Assembly: GCA_022664555.1 (NCBI GenBank)
Contig: GCA_022664555.1_4839.1
Strand: one strand, 5' to 3'
Source of the DNA: Escherichia coli
GTDB taxonomy: Bacteria > Pseudomonadota > Gammaproteobacteria > Enterobacterales > Enterobacteriaceae
DNA length: 23,185 nucleotides
A program made the position numbers and the translations under genes. The notes beneath the pieces were generated by a model, which was not told the origin of the DNA, made no database searches, and saw only the letters and a program-made list of their open reading frames with translations. Positions 4,148 to 17,802 of this stretch are shown here, in pieces; position 1 is the first letter of the stretch, and the number at the start of each line of letters is the position of its first letter.

Positions 4148-5383
4148 TCAGCGTTTCAAGAGTGTCATGAGGTTGACGCTGCTGGACTTCGACTTGTCCT
4201 CAACCTTGCGCACAGGCATCTTCAGGTTCGTACATACCTCGGATGGTTCCCAGCGCGTACCCTTTTGCAGGTGCCAGATATGCAGAGGAACACCAGTCTC
4301 AAAGAACACAGGCATCTTCCACTTCTGGACGCCTGGAACGTGCCCTGCAGGAGCCTTTTCGCACAACAGGGTATCTGGCAGCCAGAGCGAACGGGCTTCC
4401 CAGAGCGCTGCGCAGGAGTATTCAGGCCAGACGCGTTCCATGTAGTCTATCTCATCCCAGGTACGCTCTGCGTCCCACCCGATGTAACGGGTATTCTTCA
4501 GTCGGAAGAATTTCTTCAGCCAACAAGCACCGGAGGTTTCAAAGTTCAGACGGTTGATGAACGTCAGATGCCCAAACTCAGCCACACAATCCTGGAACGC
4601 CTGCTCAAGGTCGGCCTCAAGGATGTCACACTCTTCATCCGTGATAGGACAACCGTTGATCTTTTTCTTCCCGTGTTTAGTCACCCAATCGTCACGGTTG
4701 GATAAGAACGCCGCGCCATTACGGTTGGACTCGCTTCCATCACGATCACGCAGCATGAAGCCAGGGACGTCAATGGTGTATTCGTTTCCGAATACCATGT
4801 TCAGGGCTTCCAGGAAGTTCCAGGCGCTCAGGCGACCGAAGTATTTCCAGGACATCGCCGTGTCCCACAGCTGGGTGAATTGTTCTGTCTTATCGATGCA
4901 CACCAACATCCCACGGAAAGCGTCATATTGAGTACGGCCAGCCAGCCAGTCAATATAGGACTGTACACACGGAATCATCTTGGACTTGCGGTAGCGACAG
5001 TCGGTATCGAATCGCATGCGATCAAAGTTCAGATTATACCAATCAGAGAAGCGCTGCATCTCTTCCTTAGACTGAGGCGGCACAGGGAACTCACTGTAGA
5101 TAGTCCACGGTCCGACAGCGTTATAGCAACAACCCCACAGGAATGCCATCCAGATCTTGCGCTCGACTTTCTGTTCGAGGCTGATGCCTTCAGTGGCTTC
5201 GATCGCATAGTCCATCAGACGCATCTGCTGGTTGTGCTCTTCTGTGTAGGACAGCGCCTCCACCCAAGCCTTGAGCAAGTACATGCGATTCTCAGGCTTG
5301 CGATAATCAACAGCTAGGTCAATCGGGTACTTCCATTCAGCCGGAGGCGTATAGCCCGTCGGCATTTTAGATAAATGATGCAT
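4148..5383 (-). CDS. hypothetical protein, Trp/Cys-rich (411 aa)
   Basis: Long uninterrupted track ORF; ATG at 5383 with GAGGAAG SD. No motif I can assign with confidence. Confidence 0.65.
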   Translation of the reverse strand: MHHLSKMPTGYTPPAEWKYPIDLAVDYRKPENRMYLLKAWVEALSYTEEHNQQMRLMDYAIEATEGISLEQKVERKIWMAFLWGCCYNAVGPWTIYSEFPVPPQSKEEMQRFSDWYNLNFDRMRFDTDCRYRKSKMIPCVQSYIDWLAGRTQYDAFRGMLVCIDKTEQFTQLWDTAMSWKYFGRLSAWNFLEALNMVFGNEYTIDVPGFMLRDRDGSESNRNGAAFLSNRDDWVTKHGKKKINGCPITDEECDILEADLEQAFQDCVAEFGHLTFINRLNFETSGACWLKKFFRLKNTRYIGWDAERTWDEIDYMERVWPEYSCAALWEARSLWLPDTLLCEKAPAGHVPGVQKWKMPVFFETGVPLHIWHLQKGTRWEPSEVCTNLKMPVRKVEDKSKSSSVNLMTLLKR

Positions 5384-5940: not shown

Positions 5941-6846
5941 TCACCCCTTCTTCATCAGGTCAAGGAGAGAGCGCGACGCTGCCTTCGGTGCTTCTGGCTG
6001 GGCGCTCGCCTTGGTTTTAGTTTTGGATGCCTTCTGCGGCTTCTCAGGCACTCTGTGCGCCAAAGGATCATCACCGCCGACCTCACGGGTCATTGGATTG
6101 GTTTCACAGTAGGCATAAAAATCTTTGATGTCAAGGTTAACCGCGCCGATATCCATCTGATAAGCGATAGCATCCCCGACAACCCAAAGAGGGGCATCAA
6201 ACGGCATGACTGCCAGTTCGCTACGTGGATCCATTTCCCACTCATTCTGAGAAGGTTTTGTATACTCAACATCCTGCCCACTGTACACGTCTGCCAAAAC
6301 GTTCCACCCCAGTGCCAACATTTCGGCCTTCGACTTCTCAAACTCCTTGTAGTAAGATTCGTTGCGCGACCAGCCGGAGTTCCCTGCTTCTTTACCAGAG
6401 CGACCACGGATACGAGCATCGTACTGATAGCGGTCGGGGTACGCAAAGTACAGCAGCGCCAATGATTCAATCGGATAGTTCTTGAACATCCATTCAGGAC
6501 GCCATTTGTCCGATAGCATGAGAGGTTCTCCCTCGCACACCAGAGTGTATCCCTGAACCAACCAGCACTTGATTAGATCACGAGCAATATCGCCTGAGCC
6601 TGTAGCAGCATGGATTGCATCCATTGAAGTCCAGGAAGCCAGGCCGGACTTGTTAGACACGGTGTACTGTCCAACGAAGATTAACTTCAGCTCTCCGAAC
6701 TTCAGGCCAAACGGGCGAGTCTTGTCACCAACGGTGTAGGTCAGTTCGGTAGGCTCCAGCTTAGTGCGCAGCCATTCGATGAACTGGACCACTCTCGTAC
6801 CCTTGCCCGTGGCCGAGGTGCCTTTCACTACAATTATTTTAGCCAT
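5941..6846 (-). CDS. P-loop nucleotide kinase-like protein (301 aa)
   Basis: Walker-A motif near the N-terminus (IIVVKGTSATGKGT, GxxxxGKGT type as in guanylate/nucleoside-monophosphate kinases). GGAGAA SD before the ATG at 6846. No HAD DxDxT motif, so not a T4 Pnk-type fused kinase-phosphatase. Confidence 0.5.
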   Translation of the reverse strand: MAKIIVVKGTSATGKGTRVVQFIEWLRTKLEPTELTYTVGDKTRPFGLKFGELKLIFVGQYTVSNKSGLASWTSMDAIHAATGSGDIARDLIKCWLVQGYTLVCEGEPLMLSDKWRPEWMFKNYPIESLALLYFAYPDRYQYDARIRGRSGKEAGNSGWSRNESYYKEFEKSKAEMLALGWNVLADVYSGQDVEYTKPSQNEWEMDPRSELAVMPFDAPLWVVGDAIAYQMDIGAVNLDIKDFYAYCETNPMTREVGGDDPLAHRVPEKPQKASKTKTKASAQPEAPKAASRSLLDLMKKG

Positions 6847-7525
6847 TTAATATTCTCCAACCGAGACATGTTTTAGCCCTACCTTTCAAGAGATTCGTTA
6901 TATTACCGGAAGGGAGGCCATATTGAAGTTCCATGTCGCATCTTCTTAACTCAACGATGCGACCATCTTTGTGCTGCCATTTGTAAATCTTTTCATCGCG
7001 ACCAGGACCAATGTCTATCAGACCAAGAGCATGCAGCCTCTTCCTAGTTTCCCCTCCACGCGTTTGAGATTCAGAGGAAGGTCTTGGTGGTTTGGGGATC
7101 TTCCCTTCTGACATCAATTTGCTTATAATCTTACCCTTTCTGGCTTGTGCTTCAGGGGTGAGTCTTGGTGGAGGTTTAATCTTACCTTCAGCGATCAAAC
7201 GTTTGCGGGTTGCGGCGCTCTTTGCGGATGACTCTGGCGTGGCCAATGGAGGCTTCCCACCCCCGACGACCATGTTATAACACCACCCAGAGTCAAGGAT
7301 CTCCTGGCAGACCAGTTCAGACTCTATCTGAAGGATAACCGAATCTTTCCCTCGGAACAGAACTTCAAACTTGAACTGGTCTTCACCGTATTTCTTGAAC
7401 GCTCGTTGTAATGCAATGCTCCCCTGACCACACTTATGCTCAGTCAACCGCCTATCCGGTTCTGAGGTGACACCGATATAGAATTTATGATTGACGAGAT
7501 TCGTGATCAGGTAGAGCGACAGCAT
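6839..7525 (-). mobile_element. GIY-YIG homing endonuclease gene (Seg-like, 228 aa)
   Basis: N-terminal LYLITNLVNHKFYIGVTS carries both halves of the GIY-YIG motif, with downstream Arg/Glu catalytic-region residues. The C-terminal half has tandem basic proline-rich repeats (GKIKPPPRLTPEAQARKGK / GKIPKPPRPSSESQTRGGETRKR), consistent with a DNA-binding domain. Overlaps both neighbours (TAATG at 7523-7527; 8 nt with the kinase-like gene). Confidence 0.85.
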
Positions 7526-12019: not shown

Positions 12020-12037
12020 GTAATTCTCCAGGTTATC

Positions 12038-12052
12038 CGTGCCGTTAGCACG
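12038..12052 (-). promoter_or_regulatory. short hairpin in the DNA polymerase 5' leader (possible translational operator)
   Basis: CGTGC-nnnnn-GCACG 5-bp stem about 15-20 nt upstream of the polymerase SD on the mRNA strand. The position is analogous to the T4 gene 43 autoregulatory operator. Confidence 0.3.
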
Positions 12053-12098
12053 TGGGCATATTTAACCATAGAGCCATTCATTGACCAAGGAGTTTATT

Positions 12099-13620: not shown

Positions 13621-14076
13621 TTCTTCCCAGAAGTCTTCGTCGTCCCCGACAGCAGCCAGTTCCGTGTCCAGTTCTTCATCGGTAAACGGTGGCAGCACCC
13701 CGTTCTGAATCAGATAATCCATCTCATCGTCTTCCAGCTGCAGGTCGGTGGCAATATACAGCGCTCCACTGCCTTCTTCGTCCGTCTCGATGCTGTATGA
13801 AGTGTATGGCACTCCATTCACTGTAATGATGATAGAGGTCGGATCCTTGGGATCTACGTGCGCCTCGAACGGCACACCATCAATCGGTGCATCTTCCAGG
13901 AAGGTAGCAAGTGCTACGGCGGCGCGGACAACATCAGTGCCTTCAACGCCCGCATAGATCTCTTCCGCGCCTGTCTCTTCACGATCAAACAGCTCAATCG
14001 TGATACCGTCTTGAACACCAGTCCATACAGGGATGTCATTGGTGTATTCTGATTCAAACAATTTGGAGGTTGGCAT
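13618..14076 (-). CDS. hypothetical acidic protein (152 aa)
   Basis: Track ORF; ATG at 14076 with GAGGAA SD 5 nt upstream. Strongly Asp/Glu-rich. Confidence 0.6.
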   Translation of the reverse strand: MPTSKLFESEYTNDIPVWTGVQDGITIELFDREETGAEEIYAGVEGTDVVRAAVALATFLEDAPIDGVPFEAHVDPKDPTSIIITVNGVPYTSYSIETDEEGSGALYIATDLQLEDDEMDYLIQNGVLPPFTDEELDTELAAVGDDEDFWEE

Positions 14077-14101
14077 GTTGGGTTCCTCAGTGGGTTAGCC
14101 A

Positions 14102-14212
14102 TATGGGGTATTTAGGCTTCCCGCTTGGCGAGGCCTGGTTTGTACAGGGCACCTCTAGGAAATATTGGAGGAAGGTTTTCATAGATACCCCACACGGATT
14201 GTATGGGGTATT
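14102..14212 (-). promoter_or_regulatory. intergenic array of ATACCCC(A) repeats, with a late-promoter-like CTAAATAC
   Basis: On the minus strand AATACCCCATA occurs twice (plus 14102-14113 and 14202-14212), with an inverted copy (plus 14185-14194) that forms an 8-bp hairpin ATACCCCA / TGGGGTAT (14185-14192 / 14203-14210). The proximal copy reads CTAAATACCCCATAT about 30 nt upstream of the ATG at 14076. Confidence 0.35.
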
Positions 14213-14221
14213 CAGGAGGGA

Positions 14222-15415
14222 TCAGGAAGGGGTGAAGTCGTTTACAGGAACTGTTTCAGGGATAGCCAGCTCAGGGCATGCTGCCTTCATCGACTCGATG
14301 TACGGCTTGCTACCCACAATCCAGAACAGAGTGTTCTCATTGAGCAACTCGGGCTTGTGTTGCTGAACCCAGGTCATGACCTTGCCTTCATAGCGAGGAT
14401 GCAACTCAATATCGCCCCACTGATATTCCATCAGGTCATTATAACGAACCCAATTAGTGGTATGAAGATCCCAATGGTGTACCTCAAAGCGAGGAAGCAC
14501 GACCTCTGGCTCTTCCTTCTGCCTGATACCACTTAGGAGGCCAGCCAGCGAAACGCTCTTAGAGGCATGCTGAAGCTCCTTCTTGCCGTGTACATAGTCT
14601 GGGTTGTCGTGATAGCGACGGGTAAAGTCGACAATGTGCGGCAGATTGGCATGTTTGCCGATGATGCGCAGACGACTCTCGATAAAGTCCAGACGGTTCG
14701 GACCGATGCCAATCAGATACACACGCTTCAGATTAGGCTTCGGATGCATTGCCAGCCCGGTCAGGATGCTTGTGCAAGAGTTGCACGATCCGGCTGGGAT
14801 GATCAGGTCAGTAATGTGATCAGGAATGTTGGCAACCTGCTCGCCACCCAACATATGGAACCCAGCAATGCGCTCAGGGGAGTGGGCTGTATGGTCGAGG
14901 GTGATACCATACTCCAGATAATACGCCTTTGGATTCTGTTGTTCGATCAACTTCTTACAGCGCGGCTGGATGGTGCTGTTGTAACCCGAGCCGACGAAGT
15001 TGAACTCACTACCAAACCAGGCTGACATTACCACCATTTCATGGTTCATACAGGTGGTGGGTTTGGTCGCGCCGAGCACAGTAGTTGTCTTGCCGCCGAA
15101 GTGCCGAGAGACTGCTGTCGCCATAGGGGACTGCGGACTACCAACGACAGTACCATGGATGATGTCAGGGGAGCCTCCGGCCTTGAGGTGCTCAACCATC
15201 AACCAGATGGCCTGGCGGAGTTTGCTGCCATTGATGCCCTGCTTGGCGTTGGCATAGTTAGACAGCGGCGCAAAATAATCTTCACGCTTGAACCAGACCT
15301 GCTGGTTGGTTTCGGGATTGACGACAAGTTCGCACGGGGTGTGCTTGTAGAGATAGTCTTCCCAGTGAACCAGATTGCGGTCGAGGGAAAGGGTATCGAA
15401 AATGGTCTTGTTCAT
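14222..15415 (-). CDS. PLP-dependent enzyme, ACC deaminase / D-cysteine desulfhydrase-like fold (397 aa)
   Basis: Track ORF 14222..15436 trimmed to the ATG at 15415 (GGAGA SD, spacing 7). WFKREDY...GINGSKLRQAIWLMVEHLKAGG...IIHGTVVGSPQSPMATAVS matches the pattern YIKRDD...GGNKLRKLEFLV...LIT.GAIQSNH of that family as recalled, including the candidate PLP-binding Lys. Confidence 0.55.
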   Translation of the reverse strand: MNKTIFDTLSLDRNLVHWEDYLYKHTPCELVVNPETNQQVWFKREDYFAPLSNYANAKQGINGSKLRQAIWLMVEHLKAGGSPDIIHGTVVGSPQSPMATAVSRHFGGKTTTVLGATKPTTCMNHEMVVMSAWFGSEFNFVGSGYNSTIQPRCKKLIEQQNPKAYYLEYGITLDHTAHSPERIAGFHMLGGEQVANIPDHITDLIIPAGSCNSCTSILTGLAMHPKPNLKRVYLIGIGPNRLDFIESRLRIIGKHANLPHIVDFTRRYHDNPDYVHGKKELQHASKSVSLAGLLSGIRQKEEPEVVLPRFEVHHWDLHTTNWVRYNDLMEYQWGDIELHPRYEGKVMTWVQQHKPELLNENTLFWIVGSKPYIESMKAACPELAIPETVPVNDFTPS

Positions 15416-15423
15416 TCTATTTT

Positions 15424-15463
15424 CTCCTGTAGACATTGGTTTATCATAGTGTATCTACAGGAG
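15424..15463 (-). promoter_or_regulatory. 10-bp inverted repeat that sequesters the SD of CDS 14222..15415
   Basis: CTCCTGTAGA (15424-15433) and TCTACAGGAG (15454-15463) are perfect reverse complements separated by 20 nt. On the mRNA the 3' arm contains the GGAG SD; the upstream in-frame ATG at 15436 lies in the loop. Confidence 0.45.
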
Positions 15464-15485
15464 TATAGAAAAGGAGAATCTCGGC

Positions 15486-16142
15486 TTATTTCTTGAATAA
15501 ACGAAGGAACTTCATCATGTTTTCCATGAAAGTCGGCTTCTTGACCTTTTGTTTTACCGGAGCGCCCTGATCATTCAGAACACGACTGACCGGAGGAGTA
15601 GGTGGTGTCGGCGCTTTCGTTTCACAGGCCGGAACGATGTTCACGTCATGATGAGAAGACTCAGATGTAGTGTTAACAACATTGTTCTCCTGGACGACAG
15701 GCTTGACGAGATTCTTTTCGTACTCACGCGCCATGGCCTGATACATCAGATTCAAATCCACCAGATCAACAGACTTGACCTTGCGACGACGCCAATTGGC
15801 GCTTTCTTCGCCATAGAAATCATATCCGTTTCTGATCAGCCAGTGTACGGCTTGTTCAAAAGAACCGAAGACCATAAGCGGAGCGCCCTGGCCTTTCTCA
15901 GATTGTTCCAGGCTACTATAACCCATCAATACAACCTGGCCTTTGATACTCAAATCAAACGTCATACCAAGGTTCGGGATGTTTTTATCGCGGCGGAAGA
16001 ACCCGCCATCACGGTAGACGTAAACAGGCGAAAGGAACTCATTCAGAGTACGCTTGACACCCTTGTATTGGAAGAGTCTGACAATTGGAGGGGTGTCATG
16101 GGAAATCACTTCGTTCAATTCCCAGATAGAAACATTACGCAT
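15486..16142 (-). CDS. hypothetical protein (218 aa)
   Basis: Track ORF; ATG at 16142 with GAGGAT SD 6 nt upstream. Proline-rich linker (KAPTPPTPPV) and basic C-terminus. Confidence 0.6.
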   Translation of the reverse strand: MRNVSIWELNEVISHDTPPIVRLFQYKGVKRTLNEFLSPVYVYRDGGFFRRDKNIPNLGMTFDLSIKGQVVLMGYSSLEQSEKGQGAPLMVFGSFEQAVHWLIRNGYDFYGEESANWRRRKVKSVDLVDLNLMYQAMAREYEKNLVKPVVQENNVVNTTSESSHHDVNIVPACETKAPTPPTPPVSRVLNDQGAPVKQKVKKPTFMENMMKFLRLFKK

Positions 16143-16166
16143 TGGTGTATCCTCAAATCTATGATA

Positions 16167-16195
16167 GGGGGTTAACGGTTAAATTTTAAACCCCC
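16167..16195. other. GC-clamped hairpin in the 5' leader of CDS 15486..16142
   Basis: GGGGGTT...AACCCCC 7-bp stem with a 15-nt AT-rich loop, followed on the plus strand by TTTGTAT. Confidence 0.35.
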
Positions 16196-16261
16196 TTTGT
16201 ATCATTGAACAAACTACGATAAAGGAGGACATGCTTGGGTCGATAAGAAGATAATAAGACA

Positions 16262-16295
16262 GGGATAAAAAGAAAGCCGGATAGGATATCCGGCT
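16262..16295 (-). terminator. intrinsic terminator at the downstream (minus-strand) end of the tRNA region
   Basis: AGCCGGATA-GGA-TATCCGGCT perfect 9-bp stem (16275-16295) followed on the minus strand by TTCTTTTTATCCC (plus 16262-16274). Confidence 0.7.
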
Positions 16296-16352
16296 ATACC
16301 ACATCGATGGGATGGGTTGAAAGACTACACGCTTGCACTGGTACTACCCTAT

Positions 16353-16380
16353 GGGAGAGCGCGTCAGGAGTCGAACCTGA
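16353..16380 (-). pseudogene. tRNA 3'-end fragment (T-arm plus acceptor 3' strand), no anticodon arm found
   Basis: Minus strand reads TCAGG-TTCGACT-CCTGA-CGCGCTC-T-CCC: a perfect 5-bp T-stem with canonical T-loop, then a 7-nt acceptor-like strand. I could not find a matching 5' acceptor, D-arm or anticodon arm within tRNA distance. Confidence 0.35.
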
Positions 16381-16512
16381 AGTCGTCGACGTAGAGAAAG
16401 CTATTTGCATTTCACTATCCTCGCCGCGATTTTCTTAACTTCCTAAACACCCCGATTACGAGAGAGTCGACATGCACATCTTCTAACTCTTCAGGAAGTC
16501 ACGCCCGTAATT

Positions 16513-16601
16513 TGGCGGAAGGTGAAGGATTCGAACCTTCGGGGGCTAAAAGCCCCACTCGATTAGCAATCGAGTCCCTTAAACCTCTCGGGCAACCTTC
16601 C
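16513..16601 (-). tRNA. tRNA-Ser (anticodon GCU), class II with long variable arm, CCA encoded
   Basis: Reverse complement folds by hand into a cloverleaf: acceptor GGAAGGT/ACCTTCC (7 bp perfect), anticodon stem CTCGA/TCGAG with loop TTGCTAA, variable arm GGGGC-TTTTA-GCCCC, T-arm GAAGG-TTCGAAT-CCTTC, discriminator G, CCA. Confidence 0.9.
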
Positions 16602-16821
16602 AATTTGGACGGGCTTCGCACCCGATTGAGCATTTGATCTACCGTAGCCCAACTCCCCGCGCTTCTCAGCGCCGATTGGTTAACTGGCGACCAGTGCCTT
16701 CTGGTTCGATCTCCTAGAAGTTTACATGCTTTGCTGCCGACCATTTCTGGTAGTTAGGGCATCGTTTCCGATGTGGAGTCACCCCATTTTATACACAGCT
16801 GGCTGCAATGCTTACTGTGTT

Positions 16822-16898
16822 TGGTGATCCTGGTTGGATTTGAACCAACGACCAATGAATTATGAGTTCACTGCTCTAACCGACTGAGCTACAGGACC
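16822..16898 (-). tRNA. tRNA with CAU anticodon (elongator Met, or Ile2 if lysidine-modified), CCA encoded
   Basis: Reverse complement: acceptor GGTCCTG/CAGGATC, D-arm GCTC-AGTCGGTTA-GAGC, anticodon stem GTGAA/TTCAT with loop CTCATAA, T-arm GTTGG-TTCAAAT-CCAAC, discriminator A, CCA. G1-C72 pair argues against an initiator. Confidence 0.88.
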
Positions 16899-17802
16899 AA
16901 ATTATTGTGTGACCAACCAAGGACTGTCAACCCTTTATCCCGTTTGTGCATGATCAGTTCATGCAGGCCTCTTTGTGCTGCCTCACGGCATGCGCTTCTG
17001 TTGGTCATTGGCTTACACTGTGGCCTCACAACAGGCGTTTATTTTTCCAGGGCTTTCCACTTGCAAGTCTTGACCATACAGGGATACGGGCTTACAAGAT
17101 CGGGTTGGACACAACTTTGATGGCTCTGGTATTAAAGATCCCGCGTCACCCATAGACATGGTTTATAAATCCAGAGCCATCAAAGTTGCAACCAATGTCG
17201 CAACTCGCAGCTTCCATGCAGAAGAAACTTGTCCTCTAACGCTCGGACCAAACGAGGCTGGCTGGTTGATTCAGAGCCGCTGGTTGCTCCAGCAAGCATG
17301 GGTTGATAGCCCGGCAACATAGAATCACCCAAAGTTGAAGAACACTCAGTGGTACAAGCCAGGGATACCAATTTCAGGTCCTTTGCGAGTTCTTTAAATG
17401 CTCTTCATTTTGTGAACTTGAGAATACTACGCCTGTCTCGGGTTTCCCCTTAGTTCGGCCTCCCAGTCCTCGCCGCGCCGGGTAGCTAACCCTGATGGCT
17501 CGTCTGCTACTGAGTTCTTCTTGGTGCCCACCAGTGTCCGGAATGTGTAGGCATCGCAATCTGCAAGGCATGGTCTATTTCACCCAATGCTCTCTCAAGT
17601 TCACAAATCGAAGTGCCCTGACTCAACAGTATAGCCCAATATGCTGTTATCGTCCACCGGATTGGCCACCCACTTCGTAGATCAACCTTTGGGTTTAAGA
17701 TAAATTGTCAAGGCACTTCGATTTGTGTGCCCTTCACCTGCCAGGGATCAGGGCTGATGGCAAGACTTCGCTCACATCTTTCAAGATACTCGTGAGAATA
17801 TC

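Follow-up and report, generated by a model that had tools for sequence, protein, structure and literature searches.

A conserved hairpin at the ribosome-binding site of a thymidine-hypermodification gene in ViI-like phages, and the promoter it may enclose

What does an enzyme dependent on pyridoxal 5′-phosphate (PLP) do in a bacteriophage, and why should its ribosome-binding site be enclosed in a perfect inverted repeat? Both questions are raised by a locus on the minus strand of a 23,185-nucleotide (nt) stretch of DNA from an Escherichia coli assembly (GCA_022664555.1, contig GCA_022664555.1_4839.1), here called the window, in which the open reading frame (ORF) at 14222-15415 is preceded by an intergenic cassette of about 70 nt. 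An annotation made from the letters alone, the sequence-only reading, had taken the ORF for a candidate auxiliary metabolic or nucleotide-modification gene in a T4-type setting, with translational control by RNA structure or a nuclease or repressor site at its start. As to the first question, orthology and the published biochemistry of gp226 of Salmonella phage ViI make it very probable that the ORF encodes the PLP-dependent decarboxylase of the Ackermannviridae, the ortholog of gp226. As to the second, the hairpin in the cassette is real and conserved, and it is probably regulatory; by analogy with the T4 genes e, soc, 49 and I-TevI, the cassette may be a promoter nested in a hairpin that occludes the ribosome-binding site, a reading to which we give slightly less than an even chance. 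Gene identity and nested-promoter hairpin, taken together, form the best explanation of the locus, and one that we hold with moderate confidence.

The enzyme and its pathway

The phage of the window is ViI-like, a member of the Ackermannviridae resembling Agtrevirus, and not T4 proper as the earlier setting would have it. A megablast search with positions 14100-15700 matched 266 phage records, nearly all of them ViI-like phages (Ackermannviridae), with the closest matches, at 95% identity, in Escherichia phage ZQ1 and in the Agtrevirus vB_CECAV_050, a Salmonella phage. Over residues 3-396 the protein has 91.4% identity to YP_004327553.1 of phage ViI (orf00226 = gp226; NC_015296), whose gene occupies the corresponding place in the ViI genome. 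The two loci also share their neighbouring genes, the cassette upstream, the partner kinase and transferase, and the predicted Schiff-base lysine. On the other hand, gp226 has a 27-residue N-terminal extension, whereas the window protein starts MNKTIF right after a conserved ATGAAC. The genes of the pathway in the window are as follows:

14222..15415, minus strand: coding sequence of the predicted PLP-dependent decarboxylase, 397 amino acids (aa) and stop, ViI gp226 ortholog (91.4% identity, PALP match, AF2/Foldseek, K65)
5941..6846, minus strand: 5-hydroxymethyldeoxyuridine (5-hmdU) DNA kinase of the same hypermodification pathway (Pfam HMUD2 PF18747, 501.8 bits)
4148..5383, minus strand: amino acid:DNA transferase of the same pathway, in the Pfam family of ViI gp247 (Pfam ADDT PF18724, 202.2 bits)

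It has been established that ViI gp226 is a PLP-dependent decarboxylase needed for the formation of 5-(2-aminoethoxy)methyluridine (5-NeOmdU) (Lee et al. 2018 PNAS, Lee et al. 2021 NAR; PMC5889632, PMC8989533). When gp226 is omitted, a nucleoside of +44 u accumulates, and reconstitution with pure enzymes has demonstrated that gp226 decarboxylates O-serinyl-thymidine in DNA (PMC5889632, PMC8989533). K92 of gp226 has been predicted to be the aldimine lysine (PMC5889632, PMC8989533); it corresponds to K65 here, the offset of 27 being the extra N-terminal residues of gp226. The window enzyme would accordingly be expected to act on DNA after replication, once the 5-hmdU DNA kinase has phosphorylated 5-hmdU and the amino acid:DNA transferase has added serine. 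The O-linked serine, through its free alpha-amine, would then take the place of the internal aldimine lysine (K65; K92 in ViI) in a Schiff base with PLP, and the loss of CO2 would leave 5-NeOmdU, which would protect the phage DNA against host nucleases.

Distant homologs likewise adjoin ADDT, P-loop kinase and Tet_JBP genes. Two homologs of 43-48% identity, L031 (ENA k141_1693436) and L032 (GCA_964402715.1), lie in compact clusters with ADDT and a P-loop kinase (Ploopntkinase3), joined in L031 by a Tet/JBP dioxygenase; these clusters suggest that uncultured phages of about 160-180 kb have further pathways of thymidine hypermodification. In a sister pathway the same role is played by gp52 of Pseudomonas phage M6, also a PLP-dependent decarboxylase, which converts C-alpha-glycinylthymidine to 5-aminoethyldeoxyuridine (5-NedU) (PMC8989533), although its substrate carries a C-linked glycine made by a radical-SAM isomerase. 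A tblastn search of the phage collection with the window protein (E <= 1e-3) did not detect M6 gp52, which is therefore only a distant relative of the window enzyme.

The family assignment of the sequence-only reading, a PLP enzyme resembling 1-aminocyclopropane-1-carboxylate (ACC) deaminase (ACCD) and D-cysteine desulfhydrase (DCyD), is borne out at the level of the fold. The Pfam model PALP (PF00291), which had been proposed as a check, matches residues 26-249 with E = 1.3e-6 but with 28.4 bits, under the gathering score of 35, a match that is real but weak; a precomputed PF00291 match is found on about one quarter of the listed homologs, the eight closest included. A sequence search of the PDB with the single protein returned no match, and a profile of 25 homologs, run against PDB sequences, matched ACC deaminase (E = 1.2e-5) and DCyD. 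Conservation of the PLP-binding lysine, a further point to be checked, is complete in these 25 homologs, in which K65 (within INGSK) is invariant down to 41% identity. INGSK aligns with GGNKTRK of ACC deaminase 1rqx and places K65 on its Lys; this stretch carries the Schiff-base lysine of ACC deaminase. The AF2 model is confident overall (predicted local distance difference test, pLDDT, 89.6; predicted template modelling score, pTM, 0.89) and includes, at residues 278-302, a poorly modelled insertion that is extra with respect to DCyD and ACCD. Its top Foldseek match in the PDB is the D-cysteine desulfhydrase 4d8t (E = 5.8e-12, probability 1.00), followed by ACC deaminases, serine and threonine dehydratases, O-acetylserine sulfhydrylase (OASS) and TrpB. 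Judged from the model, the protein appears to belong to the fold-type II PLP enzymes, with DCyD and ACC deaminase as the closest solved structures; its PHROGs family (3650, 'unknown function') is uninformative. To our knowledge, decarboxylation is unusual for fold-type II. With the DCyD/ACC deaminase subfamily (4d8t, 1rqx, 1tzk, 1j0a) the enzyme has in common the fold, GSK in the place of the GNK of GGNKTRK, and a C-terminal YEGK motif; unlike that subfamily, the gp226 ortholog has been published as decarboxylating a DNA-tethered amino acid, not as deaminating or desulfhydrating a free one.

It is hardly credible that the gene is an auxiliary metabolic gene for an enzyme of free metabolites (ACC deaminase, D-cysteine desulfhydrase or threonine deaminase), as its nearest solved folds, DCyD and ACCD, and GenBank names including 'threonine dehydratase' and 'threonine ammonia lyase' might suggest, given that identity to DCyD and ACCD is only about 14%, that kinase and transferase co-occur with it here and in distant relatives, and that the 91% identical gp226 is experimentally a decarboxylase of DNA-linked serine (PMC8989533). 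GenBank names such as 'threonine dehydratase' are homology-based misnomers. Of the earlier proposal, nucleotide modification stands; the function is already known, and the gene is neither a new candidate nor, very probably, that of a deaminase or desulfhydrase. The enzyme itself adds nothing new and confirms the known 5-NeOmdU pathway in this phage, a pathway that shields phage DNA from many restriction enzymes and is relevant to the use of such phages in biocontrol and therapy. The cassette in front of the gene is the more useful lead, an easily tested entry into the timing of gene expression and DNA modification.

The intergenic cassette and its hairpin

Read from its first ATG, the minus-strand ORF spans 14222..15436 and 404 aa. 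The upstream ATG (15436) is out of frame in most relatives, which have AAA where the window has AAAA (GGAGAAATAGAATG in the relatives, GGAGAAAATAGAATG in the window), and protein-level conservation among relatives begins at MNKTIF; the true start is therefore taken to be the conserved ATG at 15415-15413 (MNKTIF..., 397 aa). The elements upstream of this start codon, from the distal to the proximal, are:

15486..16142, minus strand: upstream gene, function unknown (ORF list), whose transcripts would read through the cassette
15411..15484, minus strand: ultra-conserved intergenic cassette of about 70 nt, from just past the upstream stop codon to ATGAA (22-genome alignment; single copy in 268 records)
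15472..15477, minus strand: distal sequence UCUCCU, complementary to the Shine-Dalgarno sequence (anti-SD; conserved in the ViI-like, phiMAM1-like and Bue1-like clades, UUCCU in one lineage)
15465..15470, minus strand: 5′ strand of the lower stem, UUCUAU, pairing with AUAGAA at 15420-15415, which ends on the A of AUG (folding)
15454..15463, minus strand: 5′ arm of the hairpin (CUCCUGUAGA), anti-SD, within the putative promoter spacer (inverted repeat, folding)
15443..15448, minus strand: -10-like hexamer TATGAT in the loop (putative nested promoter), 27 nt before the ATG, invariant in 22 genomes
15424..15433, minus strand: 3′ arm of the hairpin (UCUACAGGAG), which holds the Shine-Dalgarno (SD) sequence GGAG at 15427-15424 (inverted repeat, folding)

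The perfect 10-bp inverted repeat around the SD described in the sequence-only reading is found exactly at 15424-15433 and 15454-15463; on the RNA strand it reads CTCCTGTAGA / TCTACAGGAG, with a 20-nt loop, and its 3′ arm contains the SD, 8 nt ahead of the ATG. The leader folds stably, as had been anticipated. In RNA folding the core hairpin comprises 12 bp (-15.5 kcal/mol, z = -5.3), and together with the lower stem, down to the A of AUG, it reaches -20.6 kcal/mol (z = -5.75), whereas truncation in the loop leaves the leader without structure (-6.6 kcal/mol, z = -0.2). The probability that the SD is paired is 1.00 in the long leader versus 0.29 when the leader starts in the loop. The repeat alone is not beyond chance: a shuffled window is expected to contain 0.7 perfect 10-bp repeats with loops of <=30 nt, and 42% of shuffles contain at least one. 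It is the conservation of the cassette, not the repeat itself, for which the hairpin is taken as real.

This conservation is pronounced. In an alignment of 22 related genomes from several genera (Kuttervirus, Agtrevirus, Taipeivirus and others), only 7 of the 70 columns of the cassette vary, whereas in the adjacent enzyme gene 64 of 70 four-fold degenerate sites do so, along with 20-22% of the sites at codon positions 1 and 2. Both flanks diverge sharply, the C-terminal part of the upstream gene on one side and the N-terminal part of the enzyme on the other. The cassette occurs in 268 phage records, once per genome, and the window holds no second copy. A search of 14000-17200 against Rfam at a permissive threshold gave no match at the cassette, only tRNAs and spurious matches. 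Three single-base variants of the arms are seen in the ViI-like clade: a C to U change (giving U.G), an A to G change (giving G.U), and a common U to C change that opens the top of the stem.

Occlusion of the SD recurs in lineages whose arms read quite differently. The 5′ and 3′ strands that pair are CUCCUUGGGUAUUGAG with CUCAAU..CUCAAGGAG in phiMAM1-like phages, UAUUCUCCUUGG with CCAAGGAGAAUA in L035, AUUCUCCUUGG with CCAAGGAGAAU in L029, and GAUUCUCCU with AGGAGAUUC in Bue1; in all four the 5′ strand lies upstream of a -10-like hexamer and the 3′ strand covers the SD. Across seven lineages with at least two unrelated arm sequences, the SD has a pairing probability of 0.88-1.00 in long leaders versus 0.20-0.59 in leaders starting about 7 nt past the hexamer; for five of these lineages, <=1% of the shuffled 5′ regions attain the observed value.

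Two observations concern the region around the start codon in relatives. The ATG in the loop (AATGTCT) opens in most of them a mini-ORF of seven codons whose TGA overlaps the ATG of the gene (ATGA), and the extra A in the window and in vB_CECAV_050 brings this loop ATG in frame with the gene. In relatives L002-L028, unrelated N-terminal extensions of about 5 to 57 residues follow immediately after the conserved ATGAAC; the window (15405-15415) is without any. That these extensions are remnants of homing endonucleases was considered and rejected, since they have no similarity to F-LimX, a Hef-like homing endonuclease of LIMEstone-type phages. F-LimX itself begins, in L033 (Dickeya phage JA15; 913-1000), at the cassette's own ATGAACAAG, and the decarboxylase gene that follows it retains a duplicate GGAAAATAGAATGAA (2570-2600). 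The endonuclease has therefore placed itself under the hairpin/promoter cassette, an arrangement reminiscent of I-TevI in T4.

A proposed promoter within the hairpin, and the alternatives

The proposed mechanism is that the cassette joins a weak sigma-70-type promoter with a hairpin that occludes the ribosome-binding site, with the 5′ arm falling within the promoter spacer, the -10-like hexamer in the loop and the SD in the 3′ arm. An mRNA reading through from the upstream gene would have both arms, and its ribosome-binding site would be closed; an mRNA starting a few bases after the -10 would be without the 5′ arm and translatable. Translation of the gene would thereby be tied to the use of its own promoter. 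A scan for transcription signals found a promoter-like site (16190-16161) and a strong terminator (16295-16275), both upstream of gene 15486..16142, and no terminator-like site between that gene and the cassette, and read-through transcripts with both arms are therefore to be expected.

The promoter in the loop is inferred from the position and conservation of its elements. TATGAT lies 27 nt before the ATG in the window and 26 nt before it in ViI and most other relatives, and a TAnnAT hexamer stands 24-27 nt before the ATG in 9 of 10 leaders from clades that have otherwise diverged: TACAAT at 25-27 nt in phiMAM1-like and Bue1-like phages and in three metagenomic lineages, and TATAAT at 24-26 nt in Vibrio phages, where a terminator precedes it. 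The exception among the ten is L034, whose TAAAAT stands 37 nt before the ATG. Phages of the phiMAM1/Bue1 group have TTGGGT at a constant 17 nt ahead of TACAAT, with a spacer of variable sequence (TCCTGTAAG, CCGCCCCGG, CCGCGCCGG, TCGTGTAAG); a fixed TTGGGT-N17-TACAAT around a variable spacer is, as far as sequence comparison can tell, the pattern expected of a promoter. A late promoter of T4 type or ViI type in the loop was rejected, the loop CTATGATAAACC being unlike CTAAATACCCC.

Devices of this kind have been described in T4. Long transcripts of e, soc, 49 and I-TevI hide the ribosome-binding site, and transcripts from a promoter inside the structure, which are without the 5′ strand, are translated (Uzan & Miller 2010, PMC3014915). 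The cassette resembles them in that a complementary strand further upstream is predicted to sequester the SD, a putative promoter element stands between or within the arms, and read-through from upstream is possible. It differs in that the nested promoters of T4 are late (TATAAATA) and serve late-function genes, whereas here the putative element looks sigma-70-like and the gene is one of DNA modification. Read as a promoter nested in a hairpin, the cassette would add one more example of a device already known from phages.

Several points weigh against this reading. There is no obvious reason to block read-through translation of an enzyme needed during replication, and in the window clade the sigma-70 match is 8/12 with a poor -35 (TTTCTA), below the threshold of the scan, which did not report it. 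Shuffled 5′ regions often pair with the SD as well (baseline 0.25-0.74), because the 5′ region is pyrimidine-rich. L034 and the Vibrio phages are without SD occlusion, and L036 keeps the hairpin despite a terminator just upstream. Within the ViI-like clade no compensatory double change of the arms was found, including scans of IMG/VR and metagenome contigs in which the arms were left free and which added no further diversity, and the common U to C variant breaks the top of the stem. The loop, finally, is conserved as strongly as the arms, which an RNA hairpin alone leaves unexplained; this and the lack of a double compensatory change indicate selection on the sequence, not on pairing alone.

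The alternative that survives best is a plain leader hairpin present in all mRNAs, which would start upstream of 15463; it would serve as a constitutive throttle or as the target of a trans-acting factor (a translational repressor or a helicase), and there would be no nested promoter. The stable hairpin, the full occlusion of the SD and the weak promoter match in the loop all suit it, and the near-invariant loop and flanks fit recognition by an RNA-binding protein, as in the T4 gp43 and RegA operators (PMC3014915). It would leave unexplained, however, both the TAnnAT kept 24-27 nt before the ATG across clades with differing arms and spacers and the TTGGGT-N17-TACAAT conserved despite a variable spacer, and we regard it as unlikely. 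It is because the loop holds a positionally conserved -10-like hexamer that a nested promoter is the likelier of the two. Translational control by RNA structure, as put forward in the sequence-only reading, thus keeps its basis, an SD within a stable hairpin, and a nuclease site is unsupported.

A repressor site would correspond to a DNA-level operator, in which half-sites flanking the -10 are bound by a dimeric phage or host regulator and the RNA hairpin is a by-product. The arms do flank the -10-like hexamer, about 30 bp apart from centre to centre, conservation extends beyond pairing and into the loop, and compensatory changes are missing within the clade, all of which such an operator would account for. 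Yet in other clades the arms differ widely in sequence and are still complementary to the SD region, the 3′ arm always lying over the SD, which indicates RNA pairing; moreover, two of the single arm changes give G.U pairs, tolerated in RNA but breaking the symmetry of the DNA, and no candidate regulator is known. An operator is decidedly improbable on these grounds.

Even less probable, to the point of being remote, is that the hairpin mainly serves the upstream gene, as a 3′-end stabiliser or weak terminator of its mRNA. It begins 23 nt past the upstream stop codon, and composite terminator/promoter stem-loops, the promoter early stem-loops (PeSLs), are known in T4-like phages (Arbiol 2010; Comeau 2014, PMC4122927). 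An intrinsic terminator was nevertheless rejected, the stem being followed by AAAAUAGAAUG with no U-tract and not being called by the terminator scan, and the 3′ arm coincides with the SD of the gene that follows. With PeSLs the cassette has in common a short conserved stem-loop joined to a sigma-70-like promoter, a putative one in the cassette, and hypervariable sequence on either side. PeSLs, however, are multi-copy terminator-plus-promoter motifs of hyperplastic regions, whereas the cassette is bound to one conserved gene with the SD as its 3′ arm, and a PeSL-like mobile cassette was rejected as well, the element being single-copy in all 268 records.

The nested-promoter reading may extend beyond the window. 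It is conceivable, and we propose it only tentatively, that the cassette is a family-wide switch in enterobacterial Ackermannviridae, which would tie translation of the decarboxylase to its own promoter and might also be read by a phage or host factor. The latter is suggested because every position, the loop included, is more constrained than the non-synonymous sites of the enzyme. If true, this would give the family, in which no early or middle promoters have been identified, its first defined element of non-late regulation. It has been reported that early promoters of ViI-like phages could not be identified (Kutter et al., PMC3184105), and a 2024 review of the Ackermannviridae leaves promoters unmentioned. 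No mapped start sites were found in the transcriptome and promoter literature on the Ackermannviridae, and no description of the cassette element was found in the literature.

Neighbouring genes and further observations

Upstream of the decarboxylase gene lie a tRNA cluster and an ORF without assigned function; downstream follow a virion-protein gene and the DNA polymerase region. The gene immediately upstream (15486..16142) gave no match in a Pfam search. Two tRNA genes only (Ser-GCU and Met-CAU) were detected, at 16513-16898; the tRNA cluster of the 95% identical vB_CECAV_050 has five annotated members (Ser, Tyr, Asn, Trp, Met). Beside the tRNA genes, at 17105-17195, a long inverted repeat with 30-nt arms, 83% complementary, and a 31-nt loop gave spurious matches to miRNA families of Rfam on both strands.

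Next to the kinase gene, an ORF for a GIY-YIG endonuclease of 228 aa (6839-7525, minus strand) shares 8 nt with the start of that gene. The stretch of vB_CECAV_050 that matches this ORF and the kinase is annotated as a single 1599-nt 'endonuclease' coding sequence; either the genes are fused there or the annotation merges them.

In the leader of the DNA polymerase gene (12020-12060, minus strand), too, the SD region is predicted to be paired for the most part (ensemble P = 0.85 over positions -14 to -5); the intergenic region is shared with a divergent gene that has its SD on the other strand. The background measure of SD pairing for the other genes of the window proved too coarse for use.

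Just 3′ of the decarboxylase stop codon and ahead of the virion-protein gene stand two copies of a motif that we take to be the late-promoter motif proposed for ViI-like phages, namely CTAAATACCCC (exact) and CTGAATACCCC, at 14105-14115 and 14205-14215 on the minus strand. The second of the two copies forms the 5′ arm of an 8-bp hairpin, AUACCCCA/UGGGGUAU, at 14185-14211.

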